Positions 1,901-7,629 of a stretch of DNA of 17,345 nt are shown here, piece by piece. Source of the DNA: a virus (lineage: Duplodnaviria > Heunggongvirae > Uroviricota > Caudoviricetes); IMG/VR virus record IMGVR_UViG_2690316028_000014, positions 1-17,345 of that record; one strand, 5' to 3'. Within the stretch, counting starts at the first letter, position 1. Every line of letters begins with the position of its first letter. Under the pieces are notes generated by a model. The model was given only the letters and a program-made list of their open reading frames with translations, did not search any database and was not told the DNA's origin. A program made the translations under genes and the position numbers.

Positions 1901-2769
1901 GCTGCCCCCTTGGAACGGTAAGAATCCCAGGTGAATGACAGCGTGCACCCGCCGCCGTCGCTCATGCGGTCAATAACACGCTCACTCACGAACGCTGCCA
2001 GTTCTTCTTTGGTCTGGTTGCTGATCAGGATGGTCGGCTTCATACGCTCATAACGGGTGTTGATGATTTCGAACATGATCAGCTTCTCGGCCTCGCTGCC
2101 GAACTGGACGCCAACTTCGTCGATGATCAAAAGGTCCGGAGTGGTGAAGTGCGCAATCACGTCGTTCTCGCAGCGCGTCGCTGTTTTCGACCACGTTGAT
2201 TTGAATTCGCGGGCAATCTTCAGCGCGGTGGTGAAAATTACCGGGCTCTGGTGGTTCTCGATGACATAACGGGCGATCGCCAGGGCGAGGTGGTTTTTAC
2301 CGGTTCCCGGCTTGCCGCACATCACCAGGCCACCACCCTGCTTCAGGCGCTCTGGCCACTTCGCGGCATACGCCTGGCAAACCCGCAGCGCGCGCTCTGA
2401 CTCCTTCCCCACCGGCTGATAGCTTTCCAGCGTGCACGTTACAAAGCGCTCAGGGATTTCGAGCTGGCGCAGCAGGCGATCGATGTTCTGCTGGCGCGTG
2501 CGGTCTTCCCACCGCTTTTTCTCGTCATACAGGAAGGTCAGCTCATCGCGAAGGCAGCCCGGACAACGAGTCGGCGGTGACGGCAGCTTGATCAGGCTGC
2601 TGGTAAGCACGCGTTTACGCTGTTCGTACTCGCCATGTTTCTCGCAAAGCACTGTTTCGAAGACGGTCTCGCAGTTAGGGAGCTGCTCTGGAGGTCTACC
2701 AAGGACTTCCAGCATTTTTTCGATAGCGTCGATTTTTTCGAGCAGTTCCATACTCAGTCCCTCGCCCAA
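1897..2769 (-). CDS. DnaC/IstB-like AAA+ helicase loader (replication protein, lambda P position)
   Basis: Walker A GKPGTGKNHLA and Walker B LLIIDEVG; N-terminal Cys pairs; lies immediately downstream of and overlapping the O-like initiator. Confidence 0.85.
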   Translation of the reverse strand: MGEGLSMELLEKIDAIEKMLEVLGRPPEQLPNCETVFETVLCEKHGEYEQRKRVLTSSLIKLPSPPTRCPGCLRDELTFLYDEKKRWEDRTRQQNIDRLLRQLEIPERFVTCTLESYQPVGKESERALRVCQAYAAKWPERLKQGGGLVMCGKPGTGKNHLALAIARYVIENHQSPVIFTTALKIAREFKSTWSKTATRCENDVIAHFTTPDLLIIDEVGVQFGSEAEKLIMFEIINTRYERMKPTILISNQTKEELAAFVSERVIDRMSDGGGCTLSFTWDSYRSKGAA

Positions 2770-3608
2770 GATGGAATTTCAGTCTGGCCATAGTCCTTGC
2801 CAGCGAAGTTCTCAGATACGCGAGACTGATTGCGGGCTGGCTGCTTGATGCCTTTCGGCTCAAACAATCCCTGCCAGCCGTTCGCAATGCTCTGGTTGAT
2901 GATTTCTTCAGGCTGATATCCGCTGCACTTGCAACGCTCGAGCAGGTTGATGGCCTGGGTAACCGTCTGCTGAGACTTGATCGGTTTCTTCAGGTCGCGA
3001 CGATAATCGACCCATGACTTCCAGACTGAAACTGACAGCCATTCAGGAAGCTCAACACCGGCCGGATCGAACGAAGCCGGTTTGGGGGATTTAGGGGGTT
3101 TATTAATATTGTCTTTATTGTCTTTTGTATGTTTGTCTTTTGTGTTTACCTGATTTGGGTAAGTGTCGTTACCTGATTCGGGTAAACATTTCTTACCTGA
3201 TACGGGTAAATTTACCTCTTTCAGGTAAACTTTGTTTTCGTTACCTGATTTGGGTAATTTCACCCATTCGCTGACCGATTTGTTAATGCCCACAGTTCGC
3301 CCGATTTGGGTAAACACCCCGCGCCTGACTAACGCACTTTTAGCCGCAGAGCATTTGTGTGGGAGGATTCCGGTCAGGGCAGATAACTGATCATTGCTTA
3401 CCCAGTCCGCCTTTTTGTTGAAACCGTATGTTTTGCGCATTACTGCCATGAAGACCAGCAGCTGATGCTGAGACAATCCAGCCAGCATGACAGCCTCCAG
3501 AAGTTCATTGGCGATGCGCGTATAGCCATCATCAAGATCTGCCACGCGCGGCTCCTTAGGTGCCACGTCAGGCACAGGGAAATTGATTACTTCGGCAGTG
3601 TTTGCCAT
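2754..3608 (-). CDS. O: Replication initiator, lambda O-like
   Basis: N-terminal region (ANELLEAV...LSQHQLLVFMAVMRKTYGFNKKADWVSNDQLSALTGI...KCSAAKSALVRRGV) matches the lambda O N-terminal domain family; iteron array and AT-rich tract lie inside the gene as in lambda; RBS GGAG before the ATG at 3606-3608. Confidence 0.85.
   Translation of the reverse strand: MANTAEVINFPVPDVAPKEPRVADLDDGYTRIANELLEAVMLAGLSQHQLLVFMAVMRKTYGFNKKADWVSNDQLSALTGILPHKCSAAKSALVRRGVFTQIGRTVGINKSVSEWVKLPKSGNENKVYLKEVNLPVSGKKCLPESGNDTYPNQVNTKDKHTKDNKDNINKPPKSPKPASFDPAGVELPEWLSVSVWKSWVDYRRDLKKPIKSQQTVTQAINLLERCKCSGYQPEEIINQSIANGWQGLFEPKGIKQPARNQSRVSENFAGKDYGQTEIPSWARD
3146..3313. repeat. Replication origin iterons (ori-lambda-like) inside the O-like gene, with adjacent AT-rich tract at about 3100-3145
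   Basis: Five to six copies of an internally palindromic 17-mer TTACCTGATNNGGGTAA at 3146-3162, 3169-3185, 3193-3209, 3212-3228 (degenerate), 3241-3257 and a partial copy at about 3299-3313; flanked by ttattaatattgtctttattgtcttttgtatgtttgtctttt. Confidence 0.7.
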
Positions 3609-3690: not shown

Positions 3691-3912
3691 TCATGCTTCA
3701 AAATCTCCCTTCGCTCCATCCCGGTTAGAAATCAGGATGGCCAGCAGCAGCGACATGTTCGGTACCAGGCTCTCCTGCCAGCGGCTTACGGTTGATTTAT
3801 TTCTGCCAGCAACTTCAGCTATACGTGATATCCCCAGATCAGATATCTGGCTGCGTAACCAACTCTCTATCCTCCTAGCCTCCAATTTGTTGCGTGCGGT
3901 TGATGTCTCCAT
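3691..3912 (-). CDS. cII: CII-like transcriptional activator
   Basis: 73 aa; RIESWLRSQISDLGISRIAEVAGRNKSTVSRWQESLVPNMSLLLAIL parallels the lambda CII HTH core as recalled; RBS AGAGGAAG; located downstream of cro. Confidence 0.75.
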   Translation of the reverse strand: METSTARNKLEARRIESWLRSQISDLGISRIAEVAGRNKSTVSRWQESLVPNMSLLLAILISNRDGAKGDFEA

Positions 3913-3950: not shown

Positions 3951-4184
3951 TTAGGCGGCGTTGTTGTCGATCGGTGATGGGAACAGCGTCGGTAAGTCAG
4001 GGCGAATCTGGTAGGCCTGAATTTCACCACCAGTTGCTTTCACGATGCTGTTCACATGCTCCGGAGAAACCTTTGCTTTGTTGTGTAGCCACTTGTAAAC
4101 CGCCTGCTGCGATACTGCGCATGCTTCACCAAGGGCTTTTTGAGACCCGACGATGGTAATGGCGGTTTTAATGGTTGGATTCAT
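3951..4184 (-). CDS. cro: Cro-like HTH repressor
   Basis: 77 aa HTH protein (QKALGEACAVSQQAVYKWL) transcribed divergently from cI across an operator-rich intergenic region; RBS GGAGG. Confidence 0.7.
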   Translation of the reverse strand: MNPTIKTAITIVGSQKALGEACAVSQQAVYKWLHNKAKVSPEHVNSIVKATGGEIQAYQIRPDLPTLFPSPIDNNAA

Positions 4185-4288
4185 AACAACCTCCGTAGTG
4201 AATATAAATGAAGAATAAAACTATGGTTGTATTTAGTCAACAACCATTTTCGTTTGATGAAATAAAACCACGGTTGTAGATTGCGTAT
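4185..4288. promoter_or_regulatory. Immunity switch (OR-like): back-to-back pR-like and pRM-like promoters with ACAACC/GGTTGT operator repeats
   Basis: 25-bp palindrome ATGGTTGT-N9-ACAACCAT at 4223-4247; further ACAACC/GGTTGT copies at 4187-4192 and 4273-4278; minus-strand promoter TTGACT (complement of 4235-4240), 17 bp, TATTCT (complement of 4212-4217); plus-strand TTGATG (4254-4259), 17 bp, TAGATT (4277-4282) ending 6 nt before the cI ATG with no SD. Confidence 0.6.
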
Positions 4289-5014
4289 ATGAAAACGACA
4301 CTCGCTGAAAGACTGAAGGAAGCCAGGACATTACGAGGCCTTACACAAAAGGCTCTCGGGGATCTGGTTGGGGTAAGCCAAGCTGCTATCCAGAAGATAG
4401 AAACGGGAAAAGCTAACCAGACAACAAAGTTGGTAGAGCTGGCAAATGCTTTGATGGTTAAACCTGAATGGCTAAGTTCAGGTGTTGGCCCCATGCGATC
4501 AGACGCTAAAGAATCAAATATTGGTCCTGAATCAGAGTGGGGAACTGTCGACGCATGGGACAAAAACACCCCGCTTCCTGCTGACGAGGTTGAAGTGCCT
4601 TTTCTTAAGGATATTGAATTTGCTTGTGGCGATGGACGCGTTCAATGCGAGGATCACAATGGCTTTAAGCTCAGGTTCTCAAAGGCAACCCTCCGACGCG
4701 TTGGAGCTAATACAGATGGGTCTGGCATCCTGTGCTTCCCTGCTACTGGCGACAGTATGGAACCCGTAATACCGGATGGTACGACTGTAGCCGTCGATAC
4801 GAACAACAAACGCATAGTTGATGGGAAACTGTATGCCATTGGTCAGACAGATGGCGGGAATGGTCAACTCAAGCGCATTAAACAGCTGTATCGTAAGCCA
4901 GGCGGAAAGCTAATTATCCGCAGCTACAACAATGAGGCCTACCCTGATGAAGAAGCTGACATTGATGATGTTGAGATAATCGGCCGCCTCTTCTGGTACT
5001 CGGTATTGCTGTAG
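4289..5014 (+). CDS. cI: CI-type prophage repressor (HTH_XRE N-domain plus S24 LexA-like peptidase C-domain)
   Basis: N-terminal HTH (LTQKALGDLVGVSQAAIQKIETGK); C-terminal GDSMEP with Ser156 and Lys195/198 at lambda-CI-like spacing; candidate Cys113-Gly114 autocleavage site. Confidence 0.9.
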   Translation: MKTTLAERLKEARTLRGLTQKALGDLVGVSQAAIQKIETGKANQTTKLVELANALMVKPEWLSSGVGPMRSDAKESNIGPESEWGTVDAWDKNTPLPADEVEVPFLKDIEFACGDGRVQCEDHNGFKLRFSKATLRRVGANTDGSGILCFPATGDSMEPVIPDGTTVAVDTNNKRIVDGKLYAIGQTDGGNGQLKRIKQLYRKPGGKLIIRSYNNEAYPDEEADIDDVEIIGRLFWYSVLL

Positions 5015-5274: not shown

Positions 5275-5466
5275 GCGCTATGAGATCAGGCATCCTCGTT
5301 ACTTTGTCATGTGTGACAGCCTGGTATGCACTCTGCGAGCTTTGATGTGGTTTACCACTTTAATAGTCACCGTATCACTAAACTGATTAGCTTTACTCAT
5401 ACTCTTGTGGATTCGCTATTTCTGATGTCAATGCAAAAAAATACTAAGGAAACAAAAAGGATACTT

Positions 5467-5733
5467 ATGTCAGATAACACTATTAAAATCATACCTCAGC
5501 ACATGACCGCCACATCAGTTCTTATTACGCCTGATCGTGCTGAAACAATCATTACTTTTTACCGCCATGAATTTGAGCATCACATGCAGTCTGATGAGCA
5601 AGGAAAGAATAGCTTCCAAGTAAAAGTTGAGTTGACCCCTAACATGTCAGTCTCAATGAGCCCGGATCAAGCTGTTGCATTAGTAAAATCATTACAGGTA
5701 GCTCTCAGGGATAATGGGCTATGGAAAGACTGA
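5467..5733 (+). CDS. Hypothetical protein (88 aa) in the AT-rich cI-adjacent island
   Basis: Track ORF 5326..5733 trimmed to the ATG at 5467 preceded by AAAAAGGA; visibly AT-rich coding sequence; no recognised family. Confidence 0.5.
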   Translation: MSDNTIKIIPQHMTATSVLITPDRAETIITFYRHEFEHHMQSDEQGKNSFQVKVELTPNMSVSMSPDQAVALVKSLQVALRDNGLWKD

Positions 5734-6371
5734 AGCCAGTTTCTTCAGTTCAACCTACCTCAGGAACAACATCATCAGTTCTTCCAAGTATTATAGTTAG
5801 TGCAACCCTAGCAGCGACAACCGTTTCTCCTTATGGGGATCCATCTCAGTACCAAAGTATTGGTATTGATGCTAAGGTATCAAATAGAGTTTCATACGCC
5901 ATGGACGAAACGGGTTTGCGCCCAAGTAAGGAAGATGTAGCGATGAAGAGTGATACCCTGGAGGTAAGCGTGAGCGGAATGTCCAGAGAAGAACTTGACG
6001 CAAAGCTTTCACAAAACAAATCAGAGGTAGAGTCTATTGCTGCGGAAATGCGTCGCGAATCAGCTGACTTTAAAACCTATTATACTCAGCAATTTTCTTC
6101 TATTGAGAGAGGTATTGCTGAAATTAAAGGTGAAATCGGCGGTTTGAAAACGGGACTTACAACGACTCAGTGGGCGATGGCCGTTGGCTTGACTTTAGTT
6201 ACTGTGATTCTGTCTGGCGTGATGTTAGCCTCAAGTTGGATTATCTCCGGCAATGACAAGTCACCATCAGTAACCAGCCCGGCTCCAATTATAATACAGG
6301 TACCGACACAGCAACCATTAACGAGCGCTCCAACTAACCAATCGTCATCACAACAAGCTCCTAAGCAATAA
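5721..6371 (+). CDS. Membrane-anchored protein (216 aa): S/T-rich N-region, coiled-coil, C-terminal TM helix, S/T/Q/P-rich tail
   Basis: Long open frame in AT-rich DNA; start overlaps the upstream stop by 13 nt; alternative internal start at about 5944 with strong RBS TAAGGAAG; TM segment WAMAVGLTLVTVILSGVMLASSWII; followed directly by a terminator. Confidence 0.6.
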   Translation: MERLKPVSSVQPTSGTTSSVLPSIIVSATLAATTVSPYGDPSQYQSIGIDAKVSNRVSYAMDETGLRPSKEDVAMKSDTLEVSVSGMSREELDAKLSQNKSEVESIAAEMRRESADFKTYYTQQFSSIERGIAEIKGEIGGLKTGLTTTQWAMAVGLTLVTVILSGVMLASSWIISGNDKSPSVTSPAPIIIQVPTQQPLTSAPTNQSSSQQAPKQ

Positions 6372-6376
6372 ATAAA

Positions 6377-6403
6377 CCCGGCCACCGCGCCGGGTTTTTA
6401 TTT
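6377..6403. terminator. Bidirectional Rho-independent terminator
   Basis: CCCGGC-cacc gc-GCCGGG hairpin (6377-6394) followed by TTTTTATTT on the plus strand and preceded by AAATAAATAAA (U-tract for the minus strand); ends both the plus-strand island and the minus-strand 68-aa ORF. Confidence 0.75.
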
Positions 6404-6604
6404 GCCCTTCCGTACCATCTCAGCCGCATCCCGTAGCACCCCCTTGTGGATCACGTTCCCGACGGCTTTACGCTTCCCTTCCAGAAATCCCACAATGTTG
6501 TCTTTGTTGATCTCAATCCCGTTGTAAATCAGTTCGAACACCACACACCCAACCTCTCCAGCCATGAAGGCCATCCGGTCATCTGCAAGTTCATCACGTT
6601 CCAT
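6398..6604 (-). CDS. Hypothetical protein (68 aa), convergent with the cI island
   Basis: Track ORF 6398..6958 trimmed to the ATG at 6602-6604 with GGGGGTGG upstream; E. coli-like codon choice; the longer N-terminal extension runs through AT-rich promoter DNA and is rejected. Confidence 0.5.
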   Translation of the reverse strand: MERDELADDRMAFMAGEVGCVVFELIYNGIEINKDNIVGFLEGKRKAVGNVIHKGVLRDAAEMVRKGK

Positions 6605-6688
6605 AGCCACCCCCTGATGTTTTTTGCAGCATAGCACCAATCTTTTATAAAAATAAATTCCTTTTAAATACAACCAAATAAAACCAAA

Positions 6689-6742
6689 ACAACTATAAAT
6701 ACAACTATTGTTGTTGACGATAAAACAACTATGGTTTTTAAT
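6689..6742 (+). promoter_or_regulatory. OL/pL-like operator-promoter cluster driving the early-left (recombination-int) operon
   Basis: Three direct ACAACTAT copies at 6689, 6701 and 6725 (12- and 24-bp phasing) plus an inverted GTTGTTG; promoter TTGACG (6714-6719), 17 bp, TTTAAT (6737-6742); shares CTATGGTT with the OR region. Confidence 0.5.
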
Positions 6743-7287
6743 AAGTCCATCGAAACGAAACATCGACAGCTGAGCGAAGTTAGCCAGCGGCGGACAGCAA
6801 GTCGCCTGCTTCTTTAACAAATCAGACTGAGTGACAGGCAAGCCGTAGCTCTCCTGGCAAAAAGAAATGGCACCCGATGGGATCGAGGTAAGCACTGAGT
6901 CCGTATGCGTACGGTAGGTGTAGAGGACCACGCTGCGATGAGCTGATAAGTCACTCAATTTGAAGCGCTCCGATGATGGGGCGCTGATTCAACTTAGAGG
7001 AGTGATTCCAATGAAGAACTAAAGCGGACAGACCGCAGCCTAAAGGCAATGCAGCAGTAATGATGCCGCCCTGAGTCGCCGAATGGCGAGCCTGTGTAGT
7101 GATGGGTCAAGGTTCTTATATCAAAACAAGCTCCGGTAAAGCAGCGCGAACGCCAGACGCGCACCGGTTATGAGCGGCGATGAGCGACAAGGTCTCAAGG
7201 GCATGTGCGCGGCCACTGCGAGAGTGTGGCGAAGTTTACCAGCAGCTCTTTGCGAGGGGCTGACGGTAAACAAAAAGAGGAGTGTGT

Positions 7288-7629
7288 ATGGCAGATAAAA
7301 AAACGGCGCCACTACTGCTTAACGTAGACGCCAGCGAGGTACTTACTCAGACCGGGGAGCTTTTAAAGTTACTTGAACTTCCAGCCAGTTCCTTTCAGGG
7401 AATTCCTGAGCATGTCGTCGATCTGTTTTTTGACCGTGTCCGTGGCCTGATTGACAACATCGTCCTTAGTGATTTCTCGACCACAGTCAGCACAACTGAC
7501 GCCGGTGAAATTTGTCTCAAAGTCAAAATCATCGGGCTGGTTGAACATCTCACTTCCGCAGTCAGGGCACACGGTCCGCATGGTTTGCATGAATATATCC
7601 TTTCTACTGTTGGGGAGATTAAAGAGTAA
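7288..7629 (+). CDS. Hypothetical protein (113 aa), first ORF of the early-left operon; mutually exclusive with the antisense zinc-ribbon ORF
   Basis: Strong RBS GAGGAG 5 nt before the ATG at 7288; on the strand transcribed from the pL-like promoter; Leu codons mostly CTT/TTA, so it could be a shadow of the minus-strand ORF. Confidence 0.35.
   Translation: MADKKTAPLLLNVDASEVLTQTGELLKLLELPASSFQGIPEHVVDLFFDRVRGLIDNIVLSDFSTTVSTTDAGEICLKVKIIGLVEHLTSAVRAHGPHGLHEYILSTVGEIKE
7369..7590 (-). CDS. Candidate zinc-ribbon protein (73 aa), antisense to the 7288-7629 ORF
   Basis: CPDCG-(19 aa)-CADCG four-Cys motif; RBS AAAGGA 7 nt before the ATG at 7588-7590; host-preferred codons; the Arg-rich N-terminal extension in the track (to 7821) is rejected. 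Confidence 0.35.
   Translation of the reverse strand: MQTMRTVCPDCGSEMFNQPDDFDFETNFTGVSCADCGREITKDDVVNQATDTVKKQIDDMLRNSLKGTGWKFK

Follow-up and report, generated by a model that had tools for sequence, protein, structure and literature searches.

A widely conserved small gene beside the left operator of lambdoid prophages with a predicted AriR/YmgB-like product

In this work we analysed a stretch of 17,345 nucleotides (nt) from a tailed virus (Caudoviricetes; IMG/VR record IMGVR_UViG_2690316028_000014), which we call the window and whose positions serve as coordinates throughout. It covers the early region of a lambdoid prophage and is shown in the opposite orientation to the lambda map. Our subject is a minus-strand open reading frame (ORF) of 68 amino acids (aa) at 6398–6604 (ATG 6604–6602, TAA 6400–6398), which lies between the left operator region (OL) with the leftward promoter pL and the 3′ end of the cI operon. 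By sequence and structure computation on the window and its relatives we find that the ORF is a real and widely conserved gene, that it keeps its place beside OL across immunity types, that a conserved promoter-like element precedes it and that its product is most likely a remote homologue of Escherichia coli AriR/YmgB. A preliminary description of the window had read the ORF as a gene transcribed toward cI and divergent from pL, which holds, and had regarded control by the CI repressor as probable, for which the sequence offers no support.

Results

The ORF faces the cI operon. On the minus strand, the window carries an O-like replication gene (2754–3608), cII (3691–3912) and a YdaS/Cro-like gene (3951–4184), followed by the right operator region OR (4185–4288). 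The plus-strand cI gene (4289–5014) encodes a repressor of 241 aa with a helix-turn-helix and an S24 domain, and its operon includes two function-unassigned cargo genes (5467–5733 and 5721–6371, plus strand). A hairpin at 6374–6397, terminator-like on both strands, separates this cargo from the ORF, so that the two converging units share one end hairpin, as had been proposed. E. coli KCJ3K291 has this hairpin behind the ORF as well, there beside unrelated cargo and with a T-run that is good only in the cI-operon direction. Past the ORF come the AT-rich OL/pL region and then the leftward early operon, which extends up to the integrase and a tRNA-Thr gene. The GC content is 51 % in the ORF, 41–44 % in the adjoining cargo, 49 % in cI and 53 % in the whole window.

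Several lines of evidence establish the ORF as a gene. Its length is uninformative by itself, because the window holds 139 ORFs of at least 40 aa. The translation matches PHROG 3975, a phage family with unassigned function, over its entire length (E 5e-35; residues 1–68 against profile positions 1–68 of 68). Homologues form 169 clusters, all labelled “hypothetical”, from Enterobacter, Klebsiella aerogenes, Citrobacter, Salmonella, E. coli, Kluyvera and others, with 94 representatives at 50 % identity, and an index of public assemblies lists the exact 68-aa protein in 624 blocks. The Nei–Gojobori ratio of nonsynonymous to synonymous divergence (dN/dS) is 0.04–0.20 in 20 of the 22 computable pairs, synonymous-saturated pairs included; the exceptions are the most divergent homologues, for which synonymous divergence is saturated (0.30 for the window versus phi80 and 0.50 versus HK639). 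Directly readable 2 nt 5′ of the ATG is a Shine–Dalgarno sequence, AGGGGGTGG (6607–6615, minus strand; AGGAGGTGG in HK225), whose GAGG core is kept across 39 non-redundant upstream contexts. The family match, the purifying selection and this Shine–Dalgarno sequence bear out the earlier impression of a genuine gene with a good ribosome-binding site. It is not new to databases, since HK225 and HK639 already carry it annotated as hypothetical. NCBIfam and PADLOC searches with the 68-aa protein gave no matches, and the literature collection that we searched held no article about HK225_042, HK639_46 or any AriR-like protein of phages.

The position of the gene is as conserved as its sequence. In every lambdoid relative examined we found it at the same place beside OL. 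The window protein is 100 % identical to HK225_042, 45 % identical to an unannotated frame of phi80 (33351–33542) and 43 % identical to HK639_46, and all three copies point toward cI, with pL/OL on one side and the 3′ end of the cI operon on the other. The phi80 homologue is intact (L002, 2998–3207) and sits between OL3 and gene 40A, with TGaTATGCT upstream; it is missing from the current GenBank record and from the 1988 records. A convergent cI lies downstream also in E. coli KCJ3K291, and the same is true of seven more genome loci whose cI homologue is recognisable; in one Citrobacter locus the end of cI is merely 80 bp past the ORF. Altogether, we count at least 18 lambdoid loci, and in all of them the gene occupies the interval from OL to the cI operon. 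The ORF is thus a fixed companion of OL across immunity types, phi80 included, an observation that appears to be new.

What surrounds the gene changes freely. When we looked up the exact protein, all six inspected places showed the same gene order, with two repressor types (241 and 258 aa) and varying cargo, and the identical ORF occurs together with at least five cI-operon cargo sets, a YafO toxin pair among them (L018, L103–L108). Between the window and HK225 the ORF is identical at every nucleotide, and divergence is confined to the operator segment between the pL −10 and the motif TGcTATGCT described below. On the other side, window positions 5400–6406 are 99.8 % identical to many E. coli prophages, which possess both cargo genes and lose the match at a sharp mosaic joint at about 6406, just past the terminator, and are therefore without the ORF. 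From these mosaic comparisons (HK225, KCJ3K291 and the E. coli cargo prophages), the unit of exchange extends from about 6636 to 6374. The reverse case, OL without the gene, is also found: the prophage of E. coli 2011C-3911 (L019, 2990–3110) has an OL/pL region 83 % similar to window 6650–6758 and a similar terminator hairpin, and lacks the ORF. A similar OL without the ORF is present in about 1,500 E. coli genomes, or about 28 % of the complete ones, where about 85 bp of unrelated sequence replaces the ORF. Additionally, two distant homologues lie at prophage ends. The one in Ewingella (L011, 2983–3186) comes after a large serine recombinase and before host azlC, while the one in Serratia (L017, 2998–3222) comes after a tailspike gene, beside host genes. 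Both loci are outside an immunity region, and no repressor operators are evident there from the neighbouring genes. Such sites are typical positions of host-directed cargo.

For the analysis of the promoter, we compared the upstream DNA at 99 loci, which comprise 78 unique upstream sequences and 39 contexts with differing sequence over the preceding 50 nt. In front of differing operators the same order recurs: TGn-TATGCT, 1–2 nt, an A-run, CAYCA, a GAGG-type Shine–Dalgarno sequence and the ATG. In the window, the alignment identifies a conserved extended −10, TGcTATGCT, at 6628–6636 on the minus strand (TG 6636–6635, hexamer 6633–6628), and identity between the window and HK225 begins exactly there. 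It is followed by GC-AAAAAA-CATCA (6615–6627, minus strand), the predicted start region and 5′ untranslated region, in which the A-run and CAYCA are nearly invariant. A TAYNNT hexamer with the A-run is found in 60 of the 78 unique sequences, 49 of these 60 also have the TGn, and in the 39 contexts the TG stands at 92 % and 77 % in columns outside the anchoring seed. The hexamer varies as TATGCT (38), TATGGT (10), TATGAT (8) and TATGTT (3). It thus changes at positions 4–5 and keeps T1, A2 and T6, which is the behaviour of a sigma-70 −10. The sequence TGNTATGCT occurs once in the 17-kb window with 0.52 occurrences expected by chance; this single match is not significant and its weight therefore comes from conservation. 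Judged by the spacing from the −10, transcription would start at about 6621 and give a leader of about 17 nt. Over the −35 position lies a T-rich block, AATTTATTTTT (6649–6659, minus strand), which offers TTATTT at a 17-bp spacing and is kept across immunity types. Because the block is also present in the ORF-less prophage of E. coli 2011C-3911, we assign it to the OL module, from which the gene would borrow it. The conserved promoter signature appears to be new as well.

Other promoter candidates fared less well. The hexamers of the preliminary description, TTGTAT-18-TATAAA at about 6625–6660, do exist on the minus strand (6673–6668 and 6649–6644, hence slightly outside that interval), but they are not conserved in relatives: we found no counterpart beyond their own immunity type, neither in HK225, phi80 and HK639 nor in other relatives, and the conserved −10 sits about 15 bp downstream of them. 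A scan-derived candidate, TCGTCA-17-TATAGT (6720–6692, minus strand), is a consensus match inside OL2 and has no counterpart in HK225 or phi80. In the region as a whole, three promoter-like matches were found, while 4.8 are expected from shuffles. We also rejected control by LexA. The pattern CTG-N10-CAG lies over the predicted start (6614–6629, minus strand) in the window and in HK225; most relatives have CTC with a variable 3′ arm.

We next turn to the product. An AlphaFold2 model built from 43 homologues has a mean predicted local distance difference test score (pLDDT) of 94 and shows three predicted helices (residues 5–27, 34–47 and 51–65). Foldseek returned the crystal structure of YmgB (2OXL) first, with a probability of 1.00 and template-modelling (TM) scores of 0.77/0.84, and no other match with E < 1; the modelled three-helix fold can be superposed on 2OXL. 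At the profile level, hhalign aligned a profile of distant members with the AriR-family profile at a probability of 86.8 % (E 4.2e-6, 49 columns) in the structural register. This value was reached with the broad profile, whereas a shallower one gave 37 % only. AriR and its E. coli paralogues YcgZ and YmgA all align to the phage family via the helix1-turn-helix2 motif LG..V..L..G..vN..nI...L, in the same register. PF10798, the family of AriR, is the most frequent Pfam match of the distant phage members, below threshold (5 of 42, best E 0.0072). The E. coli paralogues are equally divergent: YcgZ barely passes PF10798 (24.9 versus 22.3 bits) and YmgA has no match. From model and profiles together, we regard the product as most likely a remote homologue of AriR/YmgB, an assignment that appears to be new. 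Conservation within the phage family peaks in helix 3, with the signature GN-x-x-HKG-x-LRDAA-x-VRKG, which probably forms a binding surface. Other candidates were discarded, namely DUF6240, FakA_C and DUF2767 as sub-threshold Pfam noise for the window protein, and amyloid-beta C99 as a chance-level match (E 0.6) of the family profile to solved structures. The viral fold library BFVD gave no significant named match.

Finally, we mapped the operators. The pL promoter is read directly on the plus strand as TTGACG (6714–6719) and TTTAAT (6737–6742) at a 17-bp spacing, and in alignment it coincides with pL as annotated in phi80 and HK225. The repeat ACAACTAT occurs three times in the region, with starts at 6689, 6701 and 6725. 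Using an operator core derived from OR and OL, A[AC]AAC-N4-GTT[GT]T, we find four perfect (10/10) matches in the 17-kb window, all at OR or OL: OR1 (4217–4230), OR3 (4264–4277), OL2 (ACAACTATTGTTGT, 6701–6714), which abuts the pL −35, and OL1 (ACAACTATGGTTTT, 6725–6738) in the spacer and −10 of pL. OR2 (4240–4253) is a weaker match. Beyond OL2, toward the ORF, there are half-sites only. Two of them, AAATACAACC and AAATAAAACC, stand in direct orientation at 6666–6685, have 8-mers in common with OR and are flanked as in OR1 and OR3; this pair is a possible OL3 analogue, centred at about −54.5 from the predicted start. The annotated OL3 of phi80, its positional analogue, ends 22 nt from the −10, compared with 32 nt in the window. 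At OR, a pRM-like promoter TTGATG-17-TAGATT (4254–4282) ends 6 nt before the cI ATG (4289), which makes the cI mRNA probably leaderless; its −10 is the same as in lambda pRM and OR2 is centred at about −42.5.

With this map, the operator repeats that had been placed between and over both promoters are indeed present, and full operators do lie in pL; none lies over the conserved second promoter. The full operators come no closer than 67 bp to the conserved −10, and the core from 6659 to 6621 is free even of half-sites, so that operators overlapping both promoters, as at lambda pR/pRM, are not found. With about 128 bp between the predicted starts, the two promoters do not form the back-to-back pair of the pR/pRM kind that had been suggested. 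Depending on the immunity type, the nearest operator-like element ends about 20 to about 70 nt away from the −10. The sequence thus gives no conserved geometry for repression or for activation. From the operator positions and this variable spacing we conclude that CI control of the ORF promoter is unproven and that the sequence favours autonomy over it.

Some further observations concern the pL side of the locus. The pL leader (6750–7287, about 540 nt) contains no convincing plus-strand ORF and no recognisable N gene. A boxA of the rrn/phi80 type, TGCTTCTTTAACAA (6807–6820), directly follows a hairpin (6789–6806). The leader folds no better than shuffled sequences (z = −0.9), and an Rfam search over 6560–7320 gave no match at E ≤ 1. 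In the pL operon, a minus-strand frame at 7369–7599 encodes an ECs_2282-family CxxC zinc-binding protein (NF047912, E 5e-23; weak PADLOC match to PDC-M14A). It lies antisense and overlaps the plus-strand ORF 7288–7629 (113 aa, weak PHROG match); elsewhere, gene callers call both.

Discussion

We propose the following picture, to which as a whole we give a probability of about one half: a real gene with its own promoter makes an AriR-like product that acts on the host, largely independently of CI. In this picture, 6374–6636 would be a self-contained small-gene cassette between OL and the end of the cI operon. A sigma-70 promoter with the extended −10 TGcTATGCT would start the RNA at about 6621, assisted by the weak −35 TTATTT that the T-rich block of the OL module supplies. 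The leader of about 17 nt with its strong Shine–Dalgarno sequence would then drive translation of the 68-aa protein, and the transcript would end at the hairpin 6397–6374. The protein, a predicted three-helix bundle, would contact a host signalling pathway by protein–protein interaction, with the Rcs envelope-stress phosphorelay as the obvious candidate target. The role would be a lysogenic conversion of the moron type, outside the CI/OL switch, with the gene presumably expressed in the lysogen. The moron-type reading is suggested by three features taken together: a conserved extended −10 (60 of 78 sequences) and the hairpin 6374–6397, which would serve as the gene's own promoter and terminator; the presence or absence of the gene in otherwise similar phages, as exemplified by E. 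coli 2011C-3911 and the about 1,500 E. coli genomes; and the homologues at prophage ends. Given the AriR/YmgB-like fold, the earlier suggestion of an extra regulator or lysogenic-conversion factor was a fair guess.

The naming of Rcs draws on what is known about the E. coli protein. YmgB activates the Rcs phosphorelay, with colanic acid production going up and curli going down (PMC3509220). It forms a homodimer, and effects on biofilm and acid resistance are described (PMC3509220). The ycgZ-ymgABC locus lies beside prophage e14, and a phage origin has been proposed for it (PMC3509220). That the small helical phage product binds a host signalling protein, with Rcs as the first candidate, is nevertheless a tentative step from remote homology, and we see the odds as lying somewhat against it.

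A comparison with AriR/YmgB (b1166; PDB 2OXL; PF10798) and its paralogues YcgZ and YmgA shows how far the likeness goes. They resemble the phage protein in small size, in profile homology and in the helix1-turn-helix2 motif. However, AriR is only about 20 % identical to the phage protein, it has an N-terminal extension of about 25 residues that the phage protein lacks, and the phage helix-3 signature differs from it. AriR is also encoded in a BluR-controlled chromosomal operon, whereas the phage gene stands singly in a prophage immunity region. Among phages, HK225_042, HK639_46 and the phi80 frame share place, orientation and the conserved upstream element with the window, and function is unassigned in all of them; HK225, HK639 and phi80 differ from the window in repressor/operator specificity and in the cargo of the cI operon. 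The cassette is further comparable to lambda rexAB and to HK97-type morons, as it occupies the interval from cI to OL, comes with a promoter-like element and a terminator of its own and is a dispensable unit of exchange. Unlike these, it runs opposite to cI instead of being co-transcribed from pRM, and the upstream half of its promoter comes from the OL module. It is also far more conserved than the neighbouring cargo. Lambda pR/pRM likewise consists of two divergent promoters that flank CI operator repeats, from which the window pair differs in the distance between starts and in the second promoter, which carries no full operator.

Several points weigh against our proposal. Function cannot be transferred safely from AriR, because its mechanism is poorly defined and the identity is about 20 %. 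The window protein does not reach the gathering threshold of PF10798 and has no match to it at E ≤ 1. The promoter is predicted from conservation. The gene is dispensable, as the about 1,500 E. coli genomes with a similar OL and no such gene demonstrate. Frameshifted or truncated relatives exist on genome contigs (L012, L014 and L016), as expected for decaying prophages. The invariable lambdoid placement beside OL could reflect a functional tie to the switch instead of a permissive insertion site. Lastly, an influence of CI at an OL3-type site is possible, as the half-sites 6666–6685 lie just upstream and the phi80 OL3 abuts the −35 region.

The strongest competitor develops the CI control suggested in the preliminary description: the ORF would be an early lytic gene that CI represses at the OL repeats, so that it would stay off in the lysogen and induction would turn it on along with pL. 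The proximity of the elements speaks for it: pL and the ORF promoter are no more than about 130 bp apart, ACAAC half-sites reach 6670–6674, the pair 6666–6685 has OR1/OR3-type flanks, and in phi80 the annotated OL3 shares 1 bp with the −35 position and leaves 22 nt between its end and the conserved −10. As is generally known from lambda, looping between OL and OR by CI could additionally occlude the region. However, no full operator covers the conserved core promoter in the window, the operator–promoter spacing differs among immunity types (about 20 to about 70 nt), the TTGTAT/TATAAA hexamers on which the model was built are unconserved, and homologues exist at prophage ends, far from any operator. 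We thus consider this model rather unlikely and prefer the largely CI-independent cassette.

The product could instead be a phage-internal regulator, for example of CI, Cro, antitermination or pL activity, which would account for the fixed place beside OL. The constant location of the gene in the OL–cI interval, shared by at least 18 lambdoid loci, fits such a role, and so does the lack of a recognisable N gene in a phage with a boxA-like leader. Against it, phages that differ in repressor and operators carry a 100 % identical protein, some homologues are encoded outside immunity regions, and the predicted fold is not a helix-turn-helix DNA binder, AriR being the single strong structural match of the model. 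A role inside the phage is in our view unlikely, and a host-directed product accords better with these last observations.

Less likely still is a lysogenic promoter activated by CI, where CI bound at an OL3-like site would stimulate the weak −35 in the way OR2-bound CI stimulates pRM. The −35 TTATTT is weak indeed, and the geometry is suggestive. The phi80 OL3 is centred at about −44.5 and the OL3-like pair of the window at about −54.5, exactly one helical turn more, while the OR2 of the window pRM is centred at −42.5. Extended −10 promoters are, however, usually independent of activators, the spacing is 2 bp off the phi80 pRM geometry and is lost in other immunity types, and the start site from which all these distances are counted is itself predicted. 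A very doubtful further reading is that a conserved AriR-like connector made from a CI-tuned second OL promoter with an OL3-type site reports the state of the prophage to Rcs.

That the frame is incidental, either because convergent antisense transcription against the cI operon is what matters or because the ORF is a decaying remnant, can practically be dismissed: its orientation is convergent with the cI operon, the KCJ3K291 terminator is weak in the ORF direction and some relatives are pseudogenes, but dN/dS stays at 0.04–0.2 across wide divergence, the Shine–Dalgarno sequence is conserved and the fold is predicted with confidence, and these selection data make a non-coding or antisense role very unlikely.

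Conclusion

In summary, we describe a small gene that lies beside OL, converges with the cI operon and is preceded by a conserved promoter-like element. Lambda is not known to have a counterpart of the ORF at this position, and the preliminary description had likewise stated that a second divergent promoter pair at OL is foreign to lambda. If CI does act here after all, the locus would hold a second CI-regulated divergent promoter at OL that is missing in lambda. The lambdoid immunity region is classical and heavily studied, yet in HK225 and HK639 the gene has no name, and phi80 lacks an annotation for it. The compact signal TGnTATGCT-A-run-CAYCA could aid the annotation of such cassettes.

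Should the very doubtful reading of a CI-tuned connector be true, the Rcs output, that is capsule and surface remodelling, would shield lysogens from other phages. The protein could then also belong to a circuit of RecA-independent induction; work cited in PMC10810281 reports that overproduction of RcsA induces lambdoid prophages without RecA. The protein would in that case mark the phage source of the E. coli ycgZ-ymgAB connectors. Irrespective of CI, the predicted likeness to AriR/YmgB supports a phage origin of the E. coli connector proteins. It also provides a concrete hypothesis, according to which the product, whose gene is carried by very many enterobacterial prophages, may modulate two-component signalling of the host, with Rcs as the first candidate.

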